Virus record (IMG/VR): IMGVR_UViG_3300045988_101410
Length of the DNA: 5,002 nucleotides
Strand: one strand, 5' to 3'
Source of the DNA: a virus
Under the pieces are notes generated by a model. It saw only the letters and a program-made list of their open reading frames with translations. It had not been told where the DNA came from and searched no databases. The translations under genes and the position numbers were made by a program. Each line of letters begins with the position of its first letter. The stretch's first letter is position 1. Of this stretch, positions 1 through 5,002 are shown piece by piece.

Positions 1-119
1 ACTTTTTTTTATTTACCTTGCTACGTTTAGCCATAAACGATACCTCCTAACAAAAAAAATACTGGGATTTTAAAGAGCATAGGTTAAACGCAATTACATT
101 ATAACACTAATCCATAAAA
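1..119. repeat. Terminal redundancy from linearising a circular genome; exact copy of 4884..5002
   Basis: Direct comparison shows 1..119 and 4884..5002 are identical, 119/119. The unique genome length is therefore 4883 nt, which fits a circular Microviridae genome. Confidence 0.95.
98..106 (-). promoter_or_regulatory. Extended -10 element TGTTATAAT on the coding strand, immediately after the VP2 stop and upstream of the small basic ORF
   Basis: The minus strand reads TAG-TGTTATAATG. It has a TGn plus a perfect TATAAT. No good -35 is present (TTACAG at 17 nt), which an extended -10 tolerates. It lies about 60 nt upstream of the ORF8-like ATG. Confidence 0.3.
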
Positions 120-1048
120 CCTGTAAACGGAGAAAATATCTTAATTAATTCTCCAGTACCAAATAAATCTTGTCTTAAACCTGTATTGCTATCCTTTCCA
201 CTTGTTAAAGGGTAACGATTATATAAAATATTGCCTTCCGTCTGTGTCTTAAAAGTCTGGGCATTATAATTATTAATACGAGCGGAAATCTCTCCAACTT
301 CTGCAAGTCCTTTTTGTGTCAAGGCTCCTTGTAATTGCCTTAAAGAAATACCATTCTGTTGGGCAACTTGTGCCATTAACTCCTGTGCAGCAGCGTTACG
401 TTGTGCGGCCGAAGCAGACATCAAAGCAGCGTCTCCAGTTTTTTGTAAATAAACAATTTTAGCAGCCAACTCCTGAACAGAATTAGTAATACGTTGCTGA
501 ATTTCGGAAATTTGCATTTTATTCATAGCTGTTTCATTTTCCTGCTTTTGTTTAGTATAATTAGTCATTGCGCCTAAATAACTAATATTTGCATTATTAT
601 ATTCTACGGCAGAATTAGTTTTAACTTGGTCGTTATGGGCTTCTATCATGCGAGCTTGGGAATTAATCTGATTAGCGTCTGCATTAGTTAAATTTGCTTT
701 TGCATTATCTTGTTTTACTTGTAATTCTTTTTCTAAAAGCTCAGTCTGTTTCTTAGCAAATGCAGAATTAGCAATCTTATTTAAAGCACCGGAAATATCA
801 GGGGCGGTTACATTTGCAGTAGCACCAGAAATACTACCACCAGCAGAATTAGTAGCAGATAAAATAGGATTTAAACCTGCTTTTCGCAAATCTTCAACTT
901 CCCATTGATGACGATTTTGCATAGACTCTCTTTGAGCATTAATAGAATTAGCTTGCATTTCAAAAGCGGCGGAATTTGATTGATTAGCACCCCAAATACT
1001 AGAACCAGCACCAATAACAGCGCCAGCAATATCACCTAAAAAACTCAT
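107..1048 (-). CDS. VP2: VP2 minor capsid / DNA pilot protein (313 aa from the second Met; the ORF track starts 3 codons earlier at 1057)
   Basis: 316-aa ORF with a Gly/Ala-rich hydrophobic N-terminus (FLGDIAGAVIGAGSSIWGA) and a long Q/N/A-rich coiled-coil-like body, typical of gokushovirus VP2 (the phiX174 H analogue). It lies directly downstream of VP1. An AAGGAG site abuts the first ATG with 0-nt spacing, but sits 9 nt before the ATG at 1046-1048 (the protein begins MFFM), so the second Met is the likelier start. Stop is TAG at 107-109. Confidence 0.8.
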   Translation of the reverse strand: MSFLGDIAGAVIGAGSSIWGANQSNSAAFEMQANSINAQRESMQNRHQWEVEDLRKAGLNPILSATNSAGGSISGATANVTAPDISGALNKIANSAFAKKQTELLEKELQVKQDNAKANLTNADANQINSQARMIEAHNDQVKTNSAVEYNNANISYLGAMTNYTKQKQENETAMNKMQISEIQQRITNSVQELAAKIVYLQKTGDAALMSASAAQRNAAAQELMAQVAQQNGISLRQLQGALTQKGLAEVGEISARINNYNAQTFKTQTEGNILYNRYPLTSGKDSNTGLRQDLFGTGELIKIFSPFTGFMD

Positions 1049-1074
1049 AAAAAACATCTCCTTTATATAAAAAT

Positions 1075-1093
1075 AAGGGGGATAAACCCCCTT
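1075..1093 (-). terminator. G5/C5 stem-loop (aaggggg-ataaa-ccccctt) between VP1 stop and VP2 RBS; terminator/attenuator-like
   Basis: Perfect 7-bp stem with a 5-nt loop. On the coding strand it is followed by ATTTTTAT and then AAGGAG-ATG of VP2. It sits 6 nt after the VP1 stop codon. Confidence 0.5.
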
Positions 1094-1098
1094 TATTA

Positions 1099-2667
1099 TT
1101 AAAAATGGTCAACAAGTCCAGGCACGCTATAAATCGGCATAGGACGTACACAACTAAGAGAAAAATAACAATCTAAAAAAATTTGTGGTTCATTCTGCAC
1201 CGCCAAAACACGAGCCACAGGCGGATTATCCACTATAAACTCCGCATTCAACTTAGGAAGCTCCGCAAACTCTTGAGCAAGGTGCCAAACATCTAAGCTT
1301 TGCGCATACGTACTCCTAAACTTACCAGTAATTTGACTAGGGAAATAACGATATTCTGCCCAGCGTTCCTGATATCCAAATACTTTATCATCATCAGCAG
1401 TACCTTGAGCATAAATTTCCTTATTTAACACAGCCTGCTCACCTAAATGAGCGAGCGCAGGCCAATAATAATCAAATCGAGTCTGACGGCTCCACATTCT
1501 ATTTAAGCCTTGCTGATATGTTAAATCTGCACGTACATTTACAAGACCTATAATATAACCATGTTCCACAAAACTTTTTGTAAAGCCATTAACTTTATCA
1601 CCGAGAACACCATAAGCGGCGAGGTTACCTTGTGGGCTTGTAGTATCCGTTGCGGAAGTCTGTTGCACTGGATTTATATTTATACGTGTAGAAGAACCAC
1701 CTAAATATTCAGGACGTTGAAGCCTAGCGTCCGGAGAAATGACTCCGAAATGCGCTCTTAAAATTTCTGTATAACGTGTACCACCTCTAGCATCACGCTC
1801 ATAAAGCTTTTGAAGCTGGAAAGCTTGTCTTAAGCTATTAATAGTGATAGCAGTCGCACTAGATAAATCTACAGTAACACCACTTTTAGACATATCTATG
1901 CGATTAGTAGGAACAGTAATAGTGGGATTAACAGAAGAACCACCTTGCCAAGTCCAATTCGGATTATGAGACAAACCATTACCATCAGTATTTACACTTA
2001 AAGTATAAGAACCACCCGGAACAGACAAAGTACCATTTAAATTTGCAATAGAACCAAGCGGCAATTCTACTCCGGGGCCTTTTTGTGGCCATGGCAAACA
2101 TGAAGTAAAATAATCATGTCGTTTACCACGTCTTACAAGATTATATTTATTAATAGGGTCGGGACCATCTCCGGTCGGCACCTCTAAACTATCCTGCAAA
2201 TTTTCATCGCGAAACCACTCATTATAAATAAGGTTATAAGCTCGAAACGGAAGAGCATTAATTTTGTCTAAACTTACACCAGTAGGAATACCAAAATAAT
2301 CCGCAATAGAGCCAACCTCATGTTTGCCAGCTTCTAGGGTTGGTATTAAAAAGTCTGTACTGTCTCCAGGGTTTTTCTGTTCTCCGTTAAATTTTTGCCA
2401 GTTATCCCAAACAAGACGATTGGGAACAAAAAAGAAGAACGTTTCTAAATACATATTATCCATAAAAGGAACAACAGGAGTACTCAAACGACCAAATAAA
2501 GTAGCCTTTAAATTAAAAGTATCTCCCGGAAGAACTTCGTCAACAAAAAATGGGACAAGATAACCACTATCAAGCGTGGTTTTATAACCGTGGGAACGAT
2601 TAAAGCTACTACGTTGTATATCAGCTCTCGGAATTTGACTAAACAAATGTTGATTACTAGATTTCAT
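1099..2667 (-). CDS. VP1: VP1 major capsid protein (Microviridae F-family), 522 aa
   Basis: Largest ORF. Its size and position are typical of a gokushovirus major capsid protein. ATG at 2667 is preceded by AAGGTGA at 7-nt spacing. Stop is TAA at 1099-1101. Context is a complete microvirus gene set (Rep VP4, scaffold VP3, VP2). Confidence 0.88.
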   Translation of the reverse strand: MKSSNQHLFSQIPRADIQRSSFNRSHGYKTTLDSGYLVPFFVDEVLPGDTFNLKATLFGRLSTPVVPFMDNMYLETFFFFVPNRLVWDNWQKFNGEQKNPGDSTDFLIPTLEAGKHEVGSIADYFGIPTGVSLDKINALPFRAYNLIYNEWFRDENLQDSLEVPTGDGPDPINKYNLVRRGKRHDYFTSCLPWPQKGPGVELPLGSIANLNGTLSVPGGSYTLSVNTDGNGLSHNPNWTWQGGSSVNPTITVPTNRIDMSKSGVTVDLSSATAITINSLRQAFQLQKLYERDARGGTRYTEILRAHFGVISPDARLQRPEYLGGSSTRININPVQQTSATDTTSPQGNLAAYGVLGDKVNGFTKSFVEHGYIIGLVNVRADLTYQQGLNRMWSRQTRFDYYWPALAHLGEQAVLNKEIYAQGTADDDKVFGYQERWAEYRYFPSQITGKFRSTYAQSLDVWHLAQEFAELPKLNAEFIVDNPPVARVLAVQNEPQIFLDCYFSLSCVRPMPIYSVPGLVDHF

Positions 2668-2702
2668 TATATCACCTTAAATTTTCAGATAATTTTATAA
2701 AA

Positions 2703-2731
2703 TTGACAAAAAAAAAAAAACCTTGTATTAT
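2703..2731 (+). promoter_or_regulatory. Sigma70-like promoter on the antisense strand: TTGACA (2703-2708), 17-nt spacer, TATTAT (2726-2731)
   Basis: Consensus -35 with the optimal 17-nt spacer and a 4/6 -10. It reads away from VP1 into the hairpin/terminator cluster. The genome is AT-rich, so a chance match is possible. The complementary strand also shows CTTATAATAC (a perfect TATAAT) at the same spot, which could serve VP1. Confidence 0.25.
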
Positions 2732-2747
2732 AAGGCTTAGAAGCCTA
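2708..2747 (-). terminator. Short hairpin (aggctt-ag-aagcct) followed by a 13-nt T-run on the coding strand, upstream of VP1
   Basis: Stem 2734-2739 / 2742-2747. A 13-A run at 2708-2720 on the plus strand is a 13-T run on the coding strand. The stem is weak, so this could instead be a poly-T spacer of a promoter. Confidence 0.3.
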
Positions 2748-2754
2748 ACGGATT

Positions 2755-2790
2755 AAAAAAACACCATTTCCAAAAGTATCAAAATGGTGT
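2755..2790 (-). terminator. Intrinsic-terminator-like hairpin plus T-run after VP3 (coding strand)
   Basis: Inverted repeat acaccattt (2761-2769) / aaatggtgt (2782-2790), a perfect 9 bp with a 12-nt loop. On the minus strand it is followed immediately by TTTTTT (plus-strand A-run 2755-2760). Confidence 0.45.
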
Positions 2791-2792
2791 CA

Positions 2793-2840
2793 GTCGGGAC
2801 AGTTACATCAAGTAAGGCTGTCCCGACCACACATTTTTTT
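2793..2840 (+). terminator. Plus-strand (antisense) intrinsic-terminator-like structure: 10-bp GC-rich stem plus T7
   Basis: gtcgggacag (2793-2802) / ctgtcccgac (2818-2827) is a perfect 10-bp stem with a 15-nt loop, followed by cacaca and ttttttt (2834-2840) on the plus strand. On the coding strand the same stem lies 11 nt after the VP3 stop. Confidence 0.4.
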
Positions 2841-3306
2841 ATTGTGTGCCTGCTCCCGCAGGTGCCGGCGGTTCCGGTTTTGGTTCCGGAGTTGGTTCCG
2901 GTTTTGGTTCCGGAGTTGGTTCCGGAGTTGAAGTTTTTTCCATTAATCCAAGTTCTACAGCTTCATCAAAATTGTCGGGGTTCTGCAGAAAACTGATAAG
3001 CTCCGCAGGGTTATTATTAAATCGCTGACGAATTTTAGCAGGTAAATCCATAAAATTTGCTTGTGCCTCTAAAAGCTGATTTTGTACCTGCATATAATCT
3101 TGAGGTAAATTGGAAAAATCGCCAAACATAGGCTGTCTAGCAGACCGTATAAGGGGATTTGTTAATAAACCAGTAGTATTATAAGAAGCAATAATATTAT
3201 TTATATCTGCTTCTTCCTTAAATTGCTGTTGAGCAAGCGAAGGCGCAGAATTAAAAGTCTGCACCTTAGGGGGAGTATCAAACCTAGTATAAAAATTACA
3301 CTTCTT
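2839..3306 (-). CDS. VP3: VP3 internal scaffolding protein (about 155 aa from a GTG start; the ORF track extends it to a TTG at 3387)
   Basis: It contains a segment APSLAQQQFKEEADINNIIASYNTTG that resembles the QxFK(D/E)ECDINNI core I recall for gokushovirus VP3 (Chlamy_scaf family). This is from memory and needs a search. AGGAG at 3319-3323 abuts the ATG at 3318 (0-nt spacing) but sits 9 nt before the GTG at 3304-3306, which also gives a typical ~150-aa VP3. The C-terminus carries (T/K)PEP x5 repeats. Stop is TAA at 2839-2841. Confidence 0.65.
   Translation of the reverse strand, partial: KKCNFYTRFDTPPKVQTFNSAPSLAQQQFKEEADINNIIASYNTTGLLTNPLIRSARQPMFGDFSNLPQDYMQVQNQLLEAQANFMDLPAKIRQRFNNNPAELISFLQNPDNFDEAVELGLMEKTSTPEPTPEPKPEPTPEPKPEPPAPAGAGTQ
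2870..2929. repeat. Five 12-nt tandem repeats (ggttccggtttt / ggttccggagtt) encoding the (T/K)PEP x5 tail of VP3
   Basis: Units at 2870-2881, 2882-2893, 2894-2905, 2906-2917 and 2918-2929, with a degenerate sixth unit at 2861-2869. On the coding strand they give TPEPTPEPKPEPTPEPKPEP. The repeat also creates spurious Gly/Ser-rich plus-strand ORFs. Confidence 0.9.
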
Positions 3307-3577
3307 CACAAATATCATCTCCTGAAGTAGATTGATAAGCAATAACCAAAGATTGAACCTCTGCAACAGTAGAAATATTTTCGGCAACTTTACCAGTATT
3401 TATATTTAAAGTTGCTAATTTATCCAATCTAAAATCTTGGGAAAAACGATTTAAAGAACAATCCGTGTCTGACAAAGCAGAATTAATAACAATTCTTTTC
3501 GCTTGTGCTTCACTTTCTGCAAAGAAAGGCATTAAATAATATTCGGCTTTTTTGTCATAAATAGAGTATAAATTCAC
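3296..3577 (-). CDS. Small conserved gokushovirus protein, VP5-like (possible phiX174 protein C analogue), 93 aa
   Basis: GTG start at 3575-3577, 9 nt after an AAGGAG embedded in the VP4 C-terminal codons (translational coupling: VP4's stop at 3579-3581 is 1 nt before the GTG). The N-terminus MNLYSIYDKKAEYYLMPFF resembles the conserved N-terminus of small gokushovirus proteins found next to VP4. It sits directly after VP4, as VP5 does in gokushoviruses. Function is inferred from position only. Confidence 0.55.
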   Translation of the reverse strand: MNLYSIYDKKAEYYLMPFFAESEAQAKRIVINSALSDTDCSLNRFSQDFRLDKLATLNINTGKVAENISTVAEVQSLVIAYQSTSGDDICEEV

Positions 3578-3578
3578 T

Positions 3579-4478
3579 TTAAATTTCTCCTTCCAAAGGT
3601 CTAATTAATTTTTGTGCTTTTAAAACTTGTATAGCTTCTTTAACTTCCATACGTTCCCAACTTTTTTCATGTTCATCAGATTGTAACGCAAGAAATTTTC
3701 GGCGAGTTTTAATATTGTGCATTTCCTCAGGGTTCCACTCATCATAGATTTTATCATAATAACGAGGGGGCTTGCACTTTATCCCATTTCTAATAACAAC
3801 ATAATCATGAGAGTAAACATCATTAGCAAATTTCTCTAACCAACCACGACCGATACCGGGTCGGCGAGACATTACAACATATTCGGGTTCTCTACCCTTA
3901 TAATGTTCTTCTGCCATATCTCCAGTAATTTTTTTAGTTACATATCTTGCAACATAAGCGCAAGACTCAAATGTAACATTGCCGATAGTAGAGAACCCGA
4001 AAGGCCATAACTTTTCTATCGAGGGGGAACGATAAAGAATATTACCATGTTTATAACTCCAAGGTTTTAAATCGGGGGGTTCAAAACCAAAAAATATAAC
4101 GTGGTAATGTGGTCTTTGTAACTGTTCTCCATATTCACCGCAAGCAAAATAACGAATACCTTCACCAAATTTTTTACGTAATCTCTTAAAAAAAAGTGTT
4201 AAAGCACGCTTATCTAAACTACCATTAGGGGGTAAATTTTGGGGGTTATAAGTAAGCGTTACAAAACAATTTTTCTCATGAAGGGTAGCCTCATGCACAC
4301 AACGAACAGCCCATTGACGGCTTTTTTCTAAACGACAACCAATACATTGACCACAAGGCACTAAAACCGGCATATCTATATAACCTTTTTTGGGATTAAA
4401 AACGATAGGCCAAGCGCCAGTATCGGGATTTCTACCCTCTTTACTTCTATAGCCTGTTATAGGGTGATAACAGGTCAT
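3579..4478 (-). CDS. VP4: VP4 rolling-circle replication initiator protein (phiX174 gpA-like HUH endonuclease), 299 aa
   Basis: It has RCR motif I CFVTLTY (aa 71-77), HUH motif PHYHVIFFG (H124-Y125-H126) and motif III with two tyrosines AYVARYVTKK (Y175 at 3954-3956, Y179 at 3942-3944; compare phiX174 gpA YVAKYV). An N-terminal CGQCIGC cysteine cluster is also present. ATG at 4478 follows AAGGAG at 11-nt spacing. Confidence 0.92.
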   Translation of the reverse strand: MTCYHPITGYRSKEGRNPDTGAWPIVFNPKKGYIDMPVLVPCGQCIGCRLEKSRQWAVRCVHEATLHEKNCFVTLTYNPQNLPPNGSLDKRALTLFFKRLRKKFGEGIRYFACGEYGEQLQRPHYHVIFFGFEPPDLKPWSYKHGNILYRSPSIEKLWPFGFSTIGNVTFESCAYVARYVTKKITGDMAEEHYKGREPEYVVMSRRPGIGRGWLEKFANDVYSHDYVVIRNGIKCKPPRYYDKIYDEWNPEEMHNIKTRRKFLALQSDEHEKSWERMEVKEAIQVLKAQKLIRPLEGEI

Positions 4479-4797
4479 AAAATTAACAACTCCTTATTAA
4501 GGACGTGGGGGATACACCCCCACACCCCTGTAATTTAGTACTACGGGTGCATAACAAGTCTGCACCACTCCGCACTAAATACGTATAACTATACTATTAA
4601 GTTACATGACTGTTGTTACTTAACAGCATATATTGTAATTATAAATGTTAAAACAAATAAAATATACAACAGTACGTATTTAGTTAAATTAATATCTTTC
4701 TTAAACCTAGCTATAATATCACCTCATCAAATAATCCTAAAATGTAACAATAAAAATAATAAAAAAATAATAAACAAATACAAAAGAAATAAACGCA
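4479..4797. promoter_or_regulatory. 319-nt AT-rich non-coding region between the small basic ORF and VP4; candidate origin/promoter region
   Basis: No ORF with a credible ribosome-binding site. It contains the G5/C5 hairpin, a 6-bp ggtgca/tgcacc stem (4546-4566), an imperfect ttaagttac/gttacttaa hairpin (4598-4624) and long A/T tracts. It is the only large non-coding stretch in the genome. Confidence 0.4.
4505..4523 (-). promoter_or_regulatory. Second G5/C5 stem-loop (gtggggg-ataca-cccccac), 12 nt upstream of the VP4 RBS
   Basis: Perfect 7-bp stem with a 5-nt loop. It has the same architecture and the same spacing to an (A)TAAGGAG site as the 1075-1093 hairpin. A C-rich tail cccctg follows. 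Confidence 0.45.
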
Positions 4798-4917
4798 TTA
4801 AATTCTAAAGCCTCCACGCATAGGCTTAGCACGCAAGTTTAAACCTTTTGTTTTTTCCGCAGTCCTAGAAAATAACTTCTTGGACTTTTTTTTATTTACC
4901 TTGCTACGTTTAGCCAT
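4798..4917 (-). CDS. 39-aa highly basic small protein, candidate DNA-binding/packaging protein (phiX174 J / Chlamydia-phage ORF8 analogue); absent from the ORF track
   Basis: Translated by hand: ATG at 4915-4917 (complement) gives MAKRSKVNKKKSKKLFSRTAEKTKGLNLRAKPMRGGFRI, then TAA at 4798-4800. It has 10 K and 6 R in 39 aa and an aromatic/hydrophobic C-terminus like J protein. A TAGGAGGT Shine-Dalgarno site lies 7 nt upstream. The N-terminal 11 codons are duplicated at 34..2 by the terminal redundancy, so the gene crosses the circular junction. Confidence 0.6.
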   Translation of the reverse strand: MAKRSKVNKKKSKKLFSRTAEKTKGLNLRAKPMRGGFRI

Positions 4918-5002
4918 AAACGATACCTCCTAACAAAAAAAATACTGGGATTTTAAAGAGCATAGGTTAAACGCAATTACATTATAACACTAATCCATAA
5001 AA
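4884..5002. repeat. Second copy of the terminal redundancy (circular wrap-around)
   Basis: Identical to 1..119. Confidence 0.95.

Follow-up and report, generated by a model that had tools for sequence, protein, structure and literature searches.

The stretch of DNA analysed here, which we call the window, is the 5,002-nucleotide (nt) IMG/VR virus record IMGVR_UViG_3300045988_101410. It carries six genes, all on the minus strand and in the order VP4-VP5-VP3-VP1-VP2-ORF8, each with a family match in Pfam or PHROG (Table 1). We are highly confident that the window shows the whole circular genome, 4,883 nt long, of a gokushovirus from the gut (Microviridae, Gokushovirinae), given as the complement of its coding strand, and that the extra 119 nt are an assembler overlap at k = 119. 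In the spacer between VP3 and VP1 lies a conserved hairpin which, on balance, we favour as the viral-strand origin of replication.

Gene content of the window

The original prediction had read the gene set as VP4, a VP5-like protein, VP3, VP1, VP2 and a small basic open reading frame (ORF), all on one strand and presented antisense. This picture holds: each gene has a Pfam or PHROG match, every family-matched ORF lies on the minus strand, and the small basic ORF, here ORF8, matches phrog_10695 (2.8e-15) and is kept beside VP4 in nearly all of 83 relatives. The matches proposed at that time for VP1 (Phage_F, E 3e-194) and VP3 (Chlamy_scaf, E 1e-38) were found as expected, and the HUH motifs read in VP4 are real in that HYHVIFF and YVARYVTKK align to HFHAVHF and YVAKYVNKK of phiX174 protein A. 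By this motif alignment VP4 is, like other Microviridae initiators, an HUH rolling-circle initiator with two catalytic tyrosines. The Rep family named beforehand, Phage_CRI or Rep_trans, has to be replaced, as the actual Pfam match is REP_ORF2-G2P (PF23343).

A Shine-Dalgarno sequence precedes all six genes. Compared with three relatives, the ratio of nonsynonymous to synonymous divergence (pN/pS) is 0.04-0.26 across the set (0.10-0.26 for VP5 and 0.07-0.08 for ORF8), and all six genes are under purifying selection. For both VP3 and VP2 the first ATG touches an AGGAG, and a start 9 nt downstream suits spacing and profile better. VP2 most likely begins at its second ATG, 1048 (313 aa), because the spacing to the ribosome-binding site (RBS) is then proper and the start agrees with that of the profile. 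The alternative VP3 start, GTG 3309, gives 156 aa with better RBS spacing; VP3 most likely begins there or at ATG 3318, and not at TTG 3387 of the longest ORF. VP5 has a GTG start with GGAAGGAG just ahead as its RBS, and at its 3' end it runs into the start of VP3. In VP3, the PEP(T/K) tail at the C-terminus (PEPKPEPT) is encoded by a 24-nt tandem repeat (2870..2930, 2.3 copies, 100% match), which is one unit longer than in the closest relatives MG945479, MG945583 and L004. ORF8 crosses the contig junction, with 4798..4917 on the minus strand corresponding to 34..1 plus 4883..4798, and its C-terminal MRGGFRI resembles MRGGIRF of Chp2 ORF8 and MRGGIRL of the phiMH2K J-like protein.

Five plus-strand ORFs (47-79 aa) and the nested minus-strand ORFs had no PHROG family match, and neither a D, G, H or E-like gene nor an integrase was found among the window ORFs on either strand. 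A search of the whole window against Rfam at E<=1 gave a single match, an AilA thermometer inside VP4, which we dismissed as chance because its 29 bits lie below the gathering score of 81. Sigma-70-like promoters are as frequent as in shuffles (17 vs 16.3), so the promoter calls in Table 1 are to be read as consensus matches only; the one upstream of ORF8 and VP4 is also kept in MG945479 and MG945583.

Table 1. Features of the window, in order of position
Feature	Position	Strand	Match or remark
Complete genome unit	1..4883	-	coding strand (presumed packaged viral strand) = window minus strand
Promoter-like site TTTACA-18-(TG)TATAAT, upstream of ORF8 and VP4	98..127	-	overlaps VP2 stop; consensus match only
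VP2, minor capsid / DNA pilot protein, 316 aa	107..1057	-	phrog_8693 'pilot protein' 1e-29; pN/pS 0.12-0.17
Terminator-like hairpin AAGGGGG-TTTAT-CCCCCTT at 1075..1093 with T-rich tail, between VP1 and VP2	1067..1093	-	
VP1, major capsid protein, 522 aa	1099..2667	-	Phage_F PF02305 2.8e-194 over 10-518 of 522 aa; phrog_514 9e-236
VP1 hypervariable surface-loop region, about aa 215-258	1894..2025	-	
Rest of VP3-VP1 spacer	2668..2791	-	includes VP1 RBS AAGGTGA
Promoter-like site	2681..2709	-	consensus match only
T13 run	2708..2720	-	
Small hairpin	2731..2747	-	
Terminator-like hairpin with T7	2755..2790	-	
Conserved TGACACC after candidate origin hairpin	2792..2786	-	
Candidate (+)-strand origin hairpin	2792..2828	-	conservation and covariation
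ACTTGAT core in hairpin loop	2813..2807	-	
VP3, internal scaffolding protein, 159 aa from ATG 3318	2839..3318	-	Chlamy_scaf PF09675 1e-38; phrog_1642 5e-45
VP5 (ORF5 family), 93 aa	3296..3577	-	Phage_ORF5 PF20577 3e-15; phrog_1670
VP4, rolling-circle replication initiator (HUH endonuclease), 299 aa	3579..4478	-	REP_ORF2-G2P PF23343 5.5e-24; phrog_942 1e-128
VP4 catalytic Y-x3-Y motif YVARYVTKK	3930..3956	-	aligns to phiX174 protein A
VP4 HUH motif HYHVIFF	4089..4109	-	aligns to phiX174 protein A
VP4 motif 1 FVTLTY	4248..4265	-	
Structured ORF8-VP4 spacer	4479..4715	-	clade-specific; fold z-score -4.4; VP4 RBS AAGGAG within
G+C-rich hairpin GTGGGGG-TGTAT-CCCCCAC	4505..4523	-	
Second ACTTG hairpin GGTGCA-GACTTGTTA-TGCACC	4546..4566	-	loop like SpV4/phiMH2K variant; window's clade only
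Hairpin CTGTT..AACAG	4609..4627	-	
87-nt T-rich insertion at exact ORF8 end	4716..4802	-	absent from MG945479, MG945583, MG945491
23-aa, almost purely hydrophobic ORF MRLFLLYLFIIFLLFLLLHFRII in the insertion	4727..4798	-	ATG overlaps ORF8 stop (TAATG); GGAGG 12 nt upstream
ORF8 (VP8 / J-like), 39-aa basic putative DNA-binding protein MAKRSKVNKKKSKKLFSRTAEKTKGLNLRAKPMRGGFRI	4798..4917	-	phrog_10695 2.8e-15
119-nt wrap-around copy of 1..119	4884..5002	.	MEGAHIT k=119 overlap of circular path, not biological repeat
ORF8 RBS AGGAGG	4926..4931	-	

The unit is very probably a circle

As the original prediction had noted, positions 1..119 and 4884..5002 are identical (119/119 bases), which leaves a unit of 4,883 nt with 36% G+C; 119 is also the length of the longest prefix that equals a suffix. 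An exact look-up of the VP1 protein led to contig k119_89901 of ENA ERZ27229809, which is again 5,002 nt long with a 119-nt overlap, and whose 4,883-nt unit has 0 mismatches to that of the window, with the start rotated by 4,070 nt. MEGAHIT gives contigs names such as 'k119_...' when its final k is 119. Because of this name, and because the identical unit has a second breakpoint, we take the repeat to be the assembler's overlap of a linearised circular path. Terminal overlaps in 80 IMG/VR relatives likewise cluster at assembler k sizes (121, 55, 99, 119, 141, 127), and the circular GenBank relatives MG945479 and MG945583 run collinear through the window junction. Collectively, the overlap, the second breakpoint and the collinear relatives strongly support a circle, as had been proposed when the window was first described as a complete circle with a wrap-around.

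It is very unlikely that the sequence is instead a prophage integrated in a chromosome, or that it is linear with true direct repeats of 119 nt at its termini. Such a reading has precedents close by, in that five relatives (L005, L007, L008, L009 and L092, with 74% VP1 identity) are prophages with dif-like flanks beside lexA, and L004, at 95% identity, is a linear contig that ends in foreign DNA. However, the window contains phage sequence only, its repeat has exactly the length of the assembler k in the contig name k119, the identical unit was found with its breakpoint 4,070 nt away, dif-like motifs score no higher in the window than in shuffles, and the foreign ends of L004 turn out to be the two ends of an IS607-family insertion and not chromosome (see below).

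The unit conforms to the Microviridae in being a small circle (the range is about 4.3-6.3 kb) with every matched gene on the minus strand. One point tells against our description of it: that the genome is single-stranded DNA, and which of its strands is packaged, we infer from family membership. The T-richness of the coding strand (33.5% T) is compatible with packaging of positive-sense single-stranded DNA.

Among the relatives, one IMG/VR record of 6.8 kb (UViG_3300020036_010016, L081:1-6801) contains about 2 kb of a gokushovirus genome twice, the copies being 82-93% identical and spaced about 4,785 nt apart. The contig has the look of two related strains joined head to tail, or of a tandem dimer.

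Placement in the Gokushovirinae and closest relatives

The best solved relative of VP1 is the capsid of gokushovirus EC6098 (PDB 8DES, E 7e-218), to which both flanks of the protein align strongly while 66 central residues (about 207-273) stay unaligned. VP1 is 57% identical to that of Chp2, 53% to that of phiMH2K and 38% to that of SpV4, and is 28% identical to phiX174 F over 134 aa only; VP4 is 46% identical to Chp2 VP4. The pairwise VP1 identities and the best PDB match agree with a grouping beside Chp2, phiMH2K, SpV4 and EC6098. A large hypervariable VP1 insertion is typical of the Gokushovirinae (PMC7062461), and the unaligned residues correspond to it; in relatives with 87% overall identity this segment is wholly replaced. 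Other hallmarks of the subfamily are also there: VP3 is the single, internal scaffold, no gene for an external scaffold (D) or a major spike (G) is present, and VP2, VP5 (ORF5) and the small basic ORF8/VP8 all are.

As many metagenomic microviruses carry loose labels, we considered a Microviridae lineage outside the Gokushovirinae (Alpavirinae, Pichovirinae or another proposed subfamily) that is merely gokushovirus-like. The data make this extremely improbable. [quoted passage not shown] The same evidence bears out the original assignment of the gene set to Microviridae/Gokushovirinae.

VP1 gave 3,723 tblastn matches. By nucleotide identity the best matches in INPHARED are MG945479 (87.2% over 94% of the genome) and MG945583 (85.7%), which are Microviridae sp. 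isolates 605-1711 from pig faeces and 3973-1602 from dog faeces, both from a gut virome survey (PMC6555873). IMG/VR holds one closer contig, L004 (UViG_3300045988_052311, identical to ENA OQHI01003558, human gut), with 95% identity over 4.4 kb and 99% in the remainder, over the ORF8-VP4 spacer; by the usual 95% rule it is the same species as the window. From L004, here 97% identical, the VP1 surface loop of the window already differs at several residues. The genome is thus new at the level of strain or species, and its kind is already well populated.

Divergence from MG945479 is uneven along the genome, with synonymous divergence (pS) of 0.20-0.26 in VP4 and VP5 and of 0.43-0.70 in VP1, VP2 and ORF8. 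Because pS differs so strongly among gene blocks, this mosaic pattern suggests recombination.

A conserved hairpin is a candidate origin of viral-strand synthesis

The VP3-VP1 spacer (2668..2838) folds far better than its shuffles (z-score -5.7). It contains the hairpin GGTCGGGACAG-CCTTACTTGATGTAA-CTGTCCCGACT, which recurs in nearly all 83 relatives in the form ...CAGTTAC-nTACTTGAT-GTAACTG..., followed by TGACACC. Across 38 distinct sequences the loop is invariant, and compensatory changes are seen in 10 of the 14 stem pairs; 93.7% of cells pair, compared with 19-41% when the partners are slid by 1-3 columns. The motif TACTTG(A/T)T also lies, unannotated, in an intergenic hairpin loop of three type species, namely Chp2 (TCTACTTGAT, L089:2907-2944), phiMH2K (CCTACTTGTTGTAA, L090:3297-3336) and SpV4 (ATTACTTGTTATA, L091:512-544). 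In all, we find the loop motif in at least 285 phage records, nearly all of them microviruses, and almost always it is unannotated.

The GenBank record of phiX174 annotates the origin of viral-strand synthesis at 4306, within CAACTTG/ATATTAATAAC, and the 7-nt core ACTTGAT is common to that origin and to the hairpin in the window. By this likeness VP4 would nick between G2809 and A2808, that is TACTTG/AT, in the extruded loop. On balance, we lean towards a model in which viral-strand synthesis throughout the Gokushovirinae starts at the 2792..2828 hairpin, with VP4 cleaving TACTTG/AT at a site homologous to that of phiX174 protein A. In such a model, which follows what is known of phiX174 and cultured gokushoviruses, host enzymes would turn the incoming single-stranded circle into a double-stranded replicative form. 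VP4 would then nick the viral strand in the hairpin loop by means of the tyrosines of YVARYVTKK, rolling-circle synthesis would ensue, and the progeny strands, together with ORF8, would be packed into VP1 procapsids assembled on VP3.

Two points weigh against the origin model. The nick-site call is built on sequence identity to phiX174 and on conservation, and the hairpin could instead serve in packaging, in transcript processing or as a complementary-strand origin. In addition, the clade has a second ACTTG hairpin, in the ORF8-VP4 spacer (4546..4566). The chief competing view, then, is that the TACTTGAT hairpin is not the VP4 nick site and acts instead as a complementary-strand (primase or PriA) origin, a packaging signal or a terminator. 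We consider this possible but rather unlikely. PhiX174 has its origin within gene A, without a hairpin, and intergenic hairpins serve complementary-strand priming (PMC9865509). The searchable literature, too, yielded no experimental mapping of a gokushovirus origin and no description of the hairpin, although older subscription papers may hold one. Nevertheless, an invariant loop on a covarying stem points to sequence-specific recognition of single-stranded DNA by a protein; the 7-nt core is the cleavage core of phiX174 protein A, whose catalytic motifs VP4 shares; and no T-tract follows the hairpin at 2792..2828, whereas the next hairpin does have one. These features favour the viral-strand origin.

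The ORF8-VP4 spacer and the T-rich insertion

In most relatives ORF8 abuts VP4; in the clade of the window a spacer of 221-319 nt lies between them. Its stems are retained with altered sequence in MG945491, where the second ACTTG hairpin has its stem remodelled to 19 bp and its loop kept. A complementary-strand origin is one possible role for the hairpins of this spacer.

Between the spacer and ORF8, the window has an 87-nt T-rich insertion that is found besides in L004 alone. The insertion re-creates the last two codons of ORF8 (...R-I) and its stop with synonymous equivalents, and an exact 46-nt pattern taken from it had no match in IMG/VR. The 23-aa ORF within it differs between the window and L004, in this one comparison, by a single synonymous base, and could be a membrane peptide or a mere by-product of T-rich DNA. 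Because T-rich DNA readily yields such ORFs, and because one synonymous change is too little data, we leave the ORF unproven as coding and rate it less likely that the insertion encodes a translationally coupled 23-aa membrane peptide.

Relatives integrated at dif sites

The five relatives found as prophages (L005, L007, L008, L009 and L092; 74-75% VP1 identity) lie beside lexA and a gene of the Met-gamma-lyase family, and L092 comes from a Veillonella metagenome-assembled genome (Veillonella sp. UMGS1506). The prophages have ACGTCCGATAATATATATTATGTAAAAT at their left border and TTCCCTGTTATATATATTATGTAAAGCA at their right border (L008:1524-1551 and 6052-6079), which by their sequence appear to be a bacterial dif and a degenerate phage dif; the left site matches the dif of Bacillus subtilis at 24 of 28 positions. 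Lysogeny by the XerC/XerD route has been shown for EC6098 (PMC7062461). These prophages extend gokushovirus lysogeny of this type beyond the Enterobacteriaceae and into a Negativicutes genome.

We compared the window with five bacterial dif sites and with the dif pair of these relatives. The best dif-like motif agrees at 17-18 of 28 positions, and shuffles reach a mean of about 17.6 and a maximum of 19-21; a dif site in the window was rejected on these scores, which equal those of shuffles. The 28-bp dif-like motif that temperate, dif-dependent gokushoviruses carry in a non-coding region is thus not recognisable here. As the genome has neither an integrase nor a recognisable dif site, it is therefore probably non-integrating, and most likely does not integrate by the XerC/XerD-dif route. 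Within one VP1 clade, dif-carrying Veillonella prophages thus contrast with the dif-less genome of the window.

In MG945479 and MG945583 the ORF8-VP4 spacer contains a borderline match to the Veillonella dif, 20 of 28 positions (L001:4602-4629 and L002:4576-4603; shuffle maximum 19-20), which may be a decayed dif remnant. The homologous stretch of the window, at about 4650..4680, scores lower.

An IS607-family element in a sibling genome and the probable host

Each end of L004 carries 72-74 nt of foreign DNA (L004 1-74 and 4963-5035), and both pieces join the phage at one point, ...TTAGGAGG / TATCGTTTATGG, which corresponds to the window between 4926 and 4925. These pieces are the two termini, left and right, of a 1,981-bp mobile element (1,568 bp in a short form), which is present in at least 87 contigs of human and dog gut metagenomes and occupies more than 20 different chromosomal sites (L097-L183, L185-L194; e.g. 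L163:6500-8481). All of the full copies with a left flank (24/24) follow ...GG, usually GGAGG, and the right end terminates in GG, with an ATG within about 5-12 nt of the right end in most copies. The sites fall nearly always right after a Shine-Dalgarno-like GGAGG, GGGGG, AGAGG or GAAGG, 5-12 nt before the downstream start codon, for example between hisA and hisF, queA and tgt, sufD and sufS, or marR and ldh. The element thus shows a striking, strong preference for the gap between a ribosome-binding site and its ATG.

TnpA of the element is a serine recombinase with MerR_1 and Resolvase domains, TnpB has HTH_OrfB_IS605, OrfB_IS605 and Cas12f1-like_TNB domains, and a RAGATH-18 RNA lies at the right end. 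From TnpA, TnpB and this RNA we therefore assign the element to the IS607 family, members of which insert at GG without target duplication (PMC6188088), as this one does. An IStron with a group-I intron was ruled out, as only 89 nt precede tnpA and Rfam gives RAGATH-18 and no intron.

L004 is thus the same phage with the insertion sequence (IS) lodged between the AGGAGG of ORF8 and its start codon; being a repeat, the IS caused the contig to break there and not to close as a circle. With the IS, the genome would measure about 6.4-6.9 kb, beyond the usual size range of microviruses. We also considered whether the ends of L004 are prophage-chromosome junctions, and ruled this out because the stubs are the ends of the same 1.98-kb element that occupies more than 20 other sites.

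The sequence adjoining the right end of the IS, where a TnpB guide would be expected, is the ORF8 start region, and this region is uninterrupted in the window. That the IS607/TnpB of the sibling is guided against it is, in our view, less likely.

Within one cell, the IS must have jumped from a chromosome to the phage replicative form, so that its chromosomal copies bear on the host. Near-identical or identical copies of its TnpB occur on chromosomal contigs of up to 2.3 Mb. At the insertion site between hisA and hisF, the adjoining HisF falls, with 100% identity to the representative, in a cluster (at least 90% identity) that has Megamonas funiformis and M. hypermegale as its named members; the next named HisF relatives, from Selenomonas, are 85-86% identical. 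Veillonella, in which the prophage relatives with 74% VP1 identity are found, and Megamonas both belong to the Negativicutes. The host is thus probably a Negativicutes gut bacterium. We rate Megamonas the likeliest genus, at a little better than an even chance, because the HisF at the IS site and the Veillonella prophages lead to genera that are both Negativicutes. Against Megamonas speaks that a near-identical TnpB is labelled 'MULTISPECIES [Bacteria]' and that relatives at 88-90% occur in Fusobacterium and Megamonas alike.

Discussion

The genome itself adds little, since thousands of gut gokushoviruses have been deposited, one of them 95% and two 86-87% identical to it; its value is that of a clean, complete reference copy of the lineage. 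More may be gained from the hairpin. A candidate origin that is defined by sequence across the subfamily would let replication be studied in uncultured gokushoviruses and, if the assignment is true, the origin could be predicted from sequence in thousands of metagenomic microviruses. To our knowledge, cultured hosts for gut gokushoviruses are almost unknown, and the IS caught in the sibling genome provides a tentative one, Megamonas.

The nearest genomes, MG945479 and MG945583, share with the window the gene order, the origin-like hairpin and the hairpins of the ORF8-VP4 spacer, and their proteins are closely similar (VP4 99% and 95%, VP1 87% and ORF8 95% identity). Unlike them, the window has the 87-nt T-rich insertion after ORF8 and one more PEP(T/K) unit in VP3, and its VP1 hypervariable loop is wholly replaced.

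EC6098 (PDB 8DES; PMC7062461) is alike in its order VP4-VP5-VP3-VP1-VP2-VP8, in the VP1 core and in having the hypervariable insertion at the same place. The loop is shorter in the window, with about 66 unaligned residues compared with about 98. Moreover, EC6098 bears a dif motif and becomes a lysogen of E. coli by means of XerC/XerD (PMC7062461), whereas dif-like scores in the window are at the level of chance.

Chp2, phiMH2K and SpV4, all ICTV Gokushovirinae, have homologous VP1, VP4, VP3, VP2 and VP5, and an ORF8 with the C-terminal MRGG(I/F)R. They differ from the window in that VP3 is placed after VP2 in both Chp2 and phiMH2K, and in that all three infect intracellular or wall-less bacteria and are without the long structured ORF8-VP4 spacer.

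Finally, phiX174 (Bullavirinae) has in common with the window the Phage_F capsid fold family, an HUH initiator with YVA(K/R)YV, the nick-site core ACTTG/AT and a small basic packaging protein. Genes D, G, H, E, K, C and B, by contrast, are missing from the window; the phiX174 origin lies inside gene A and not in a hairpin, and its F protein aligns with VP1 over 134 aa, at 28% identity.

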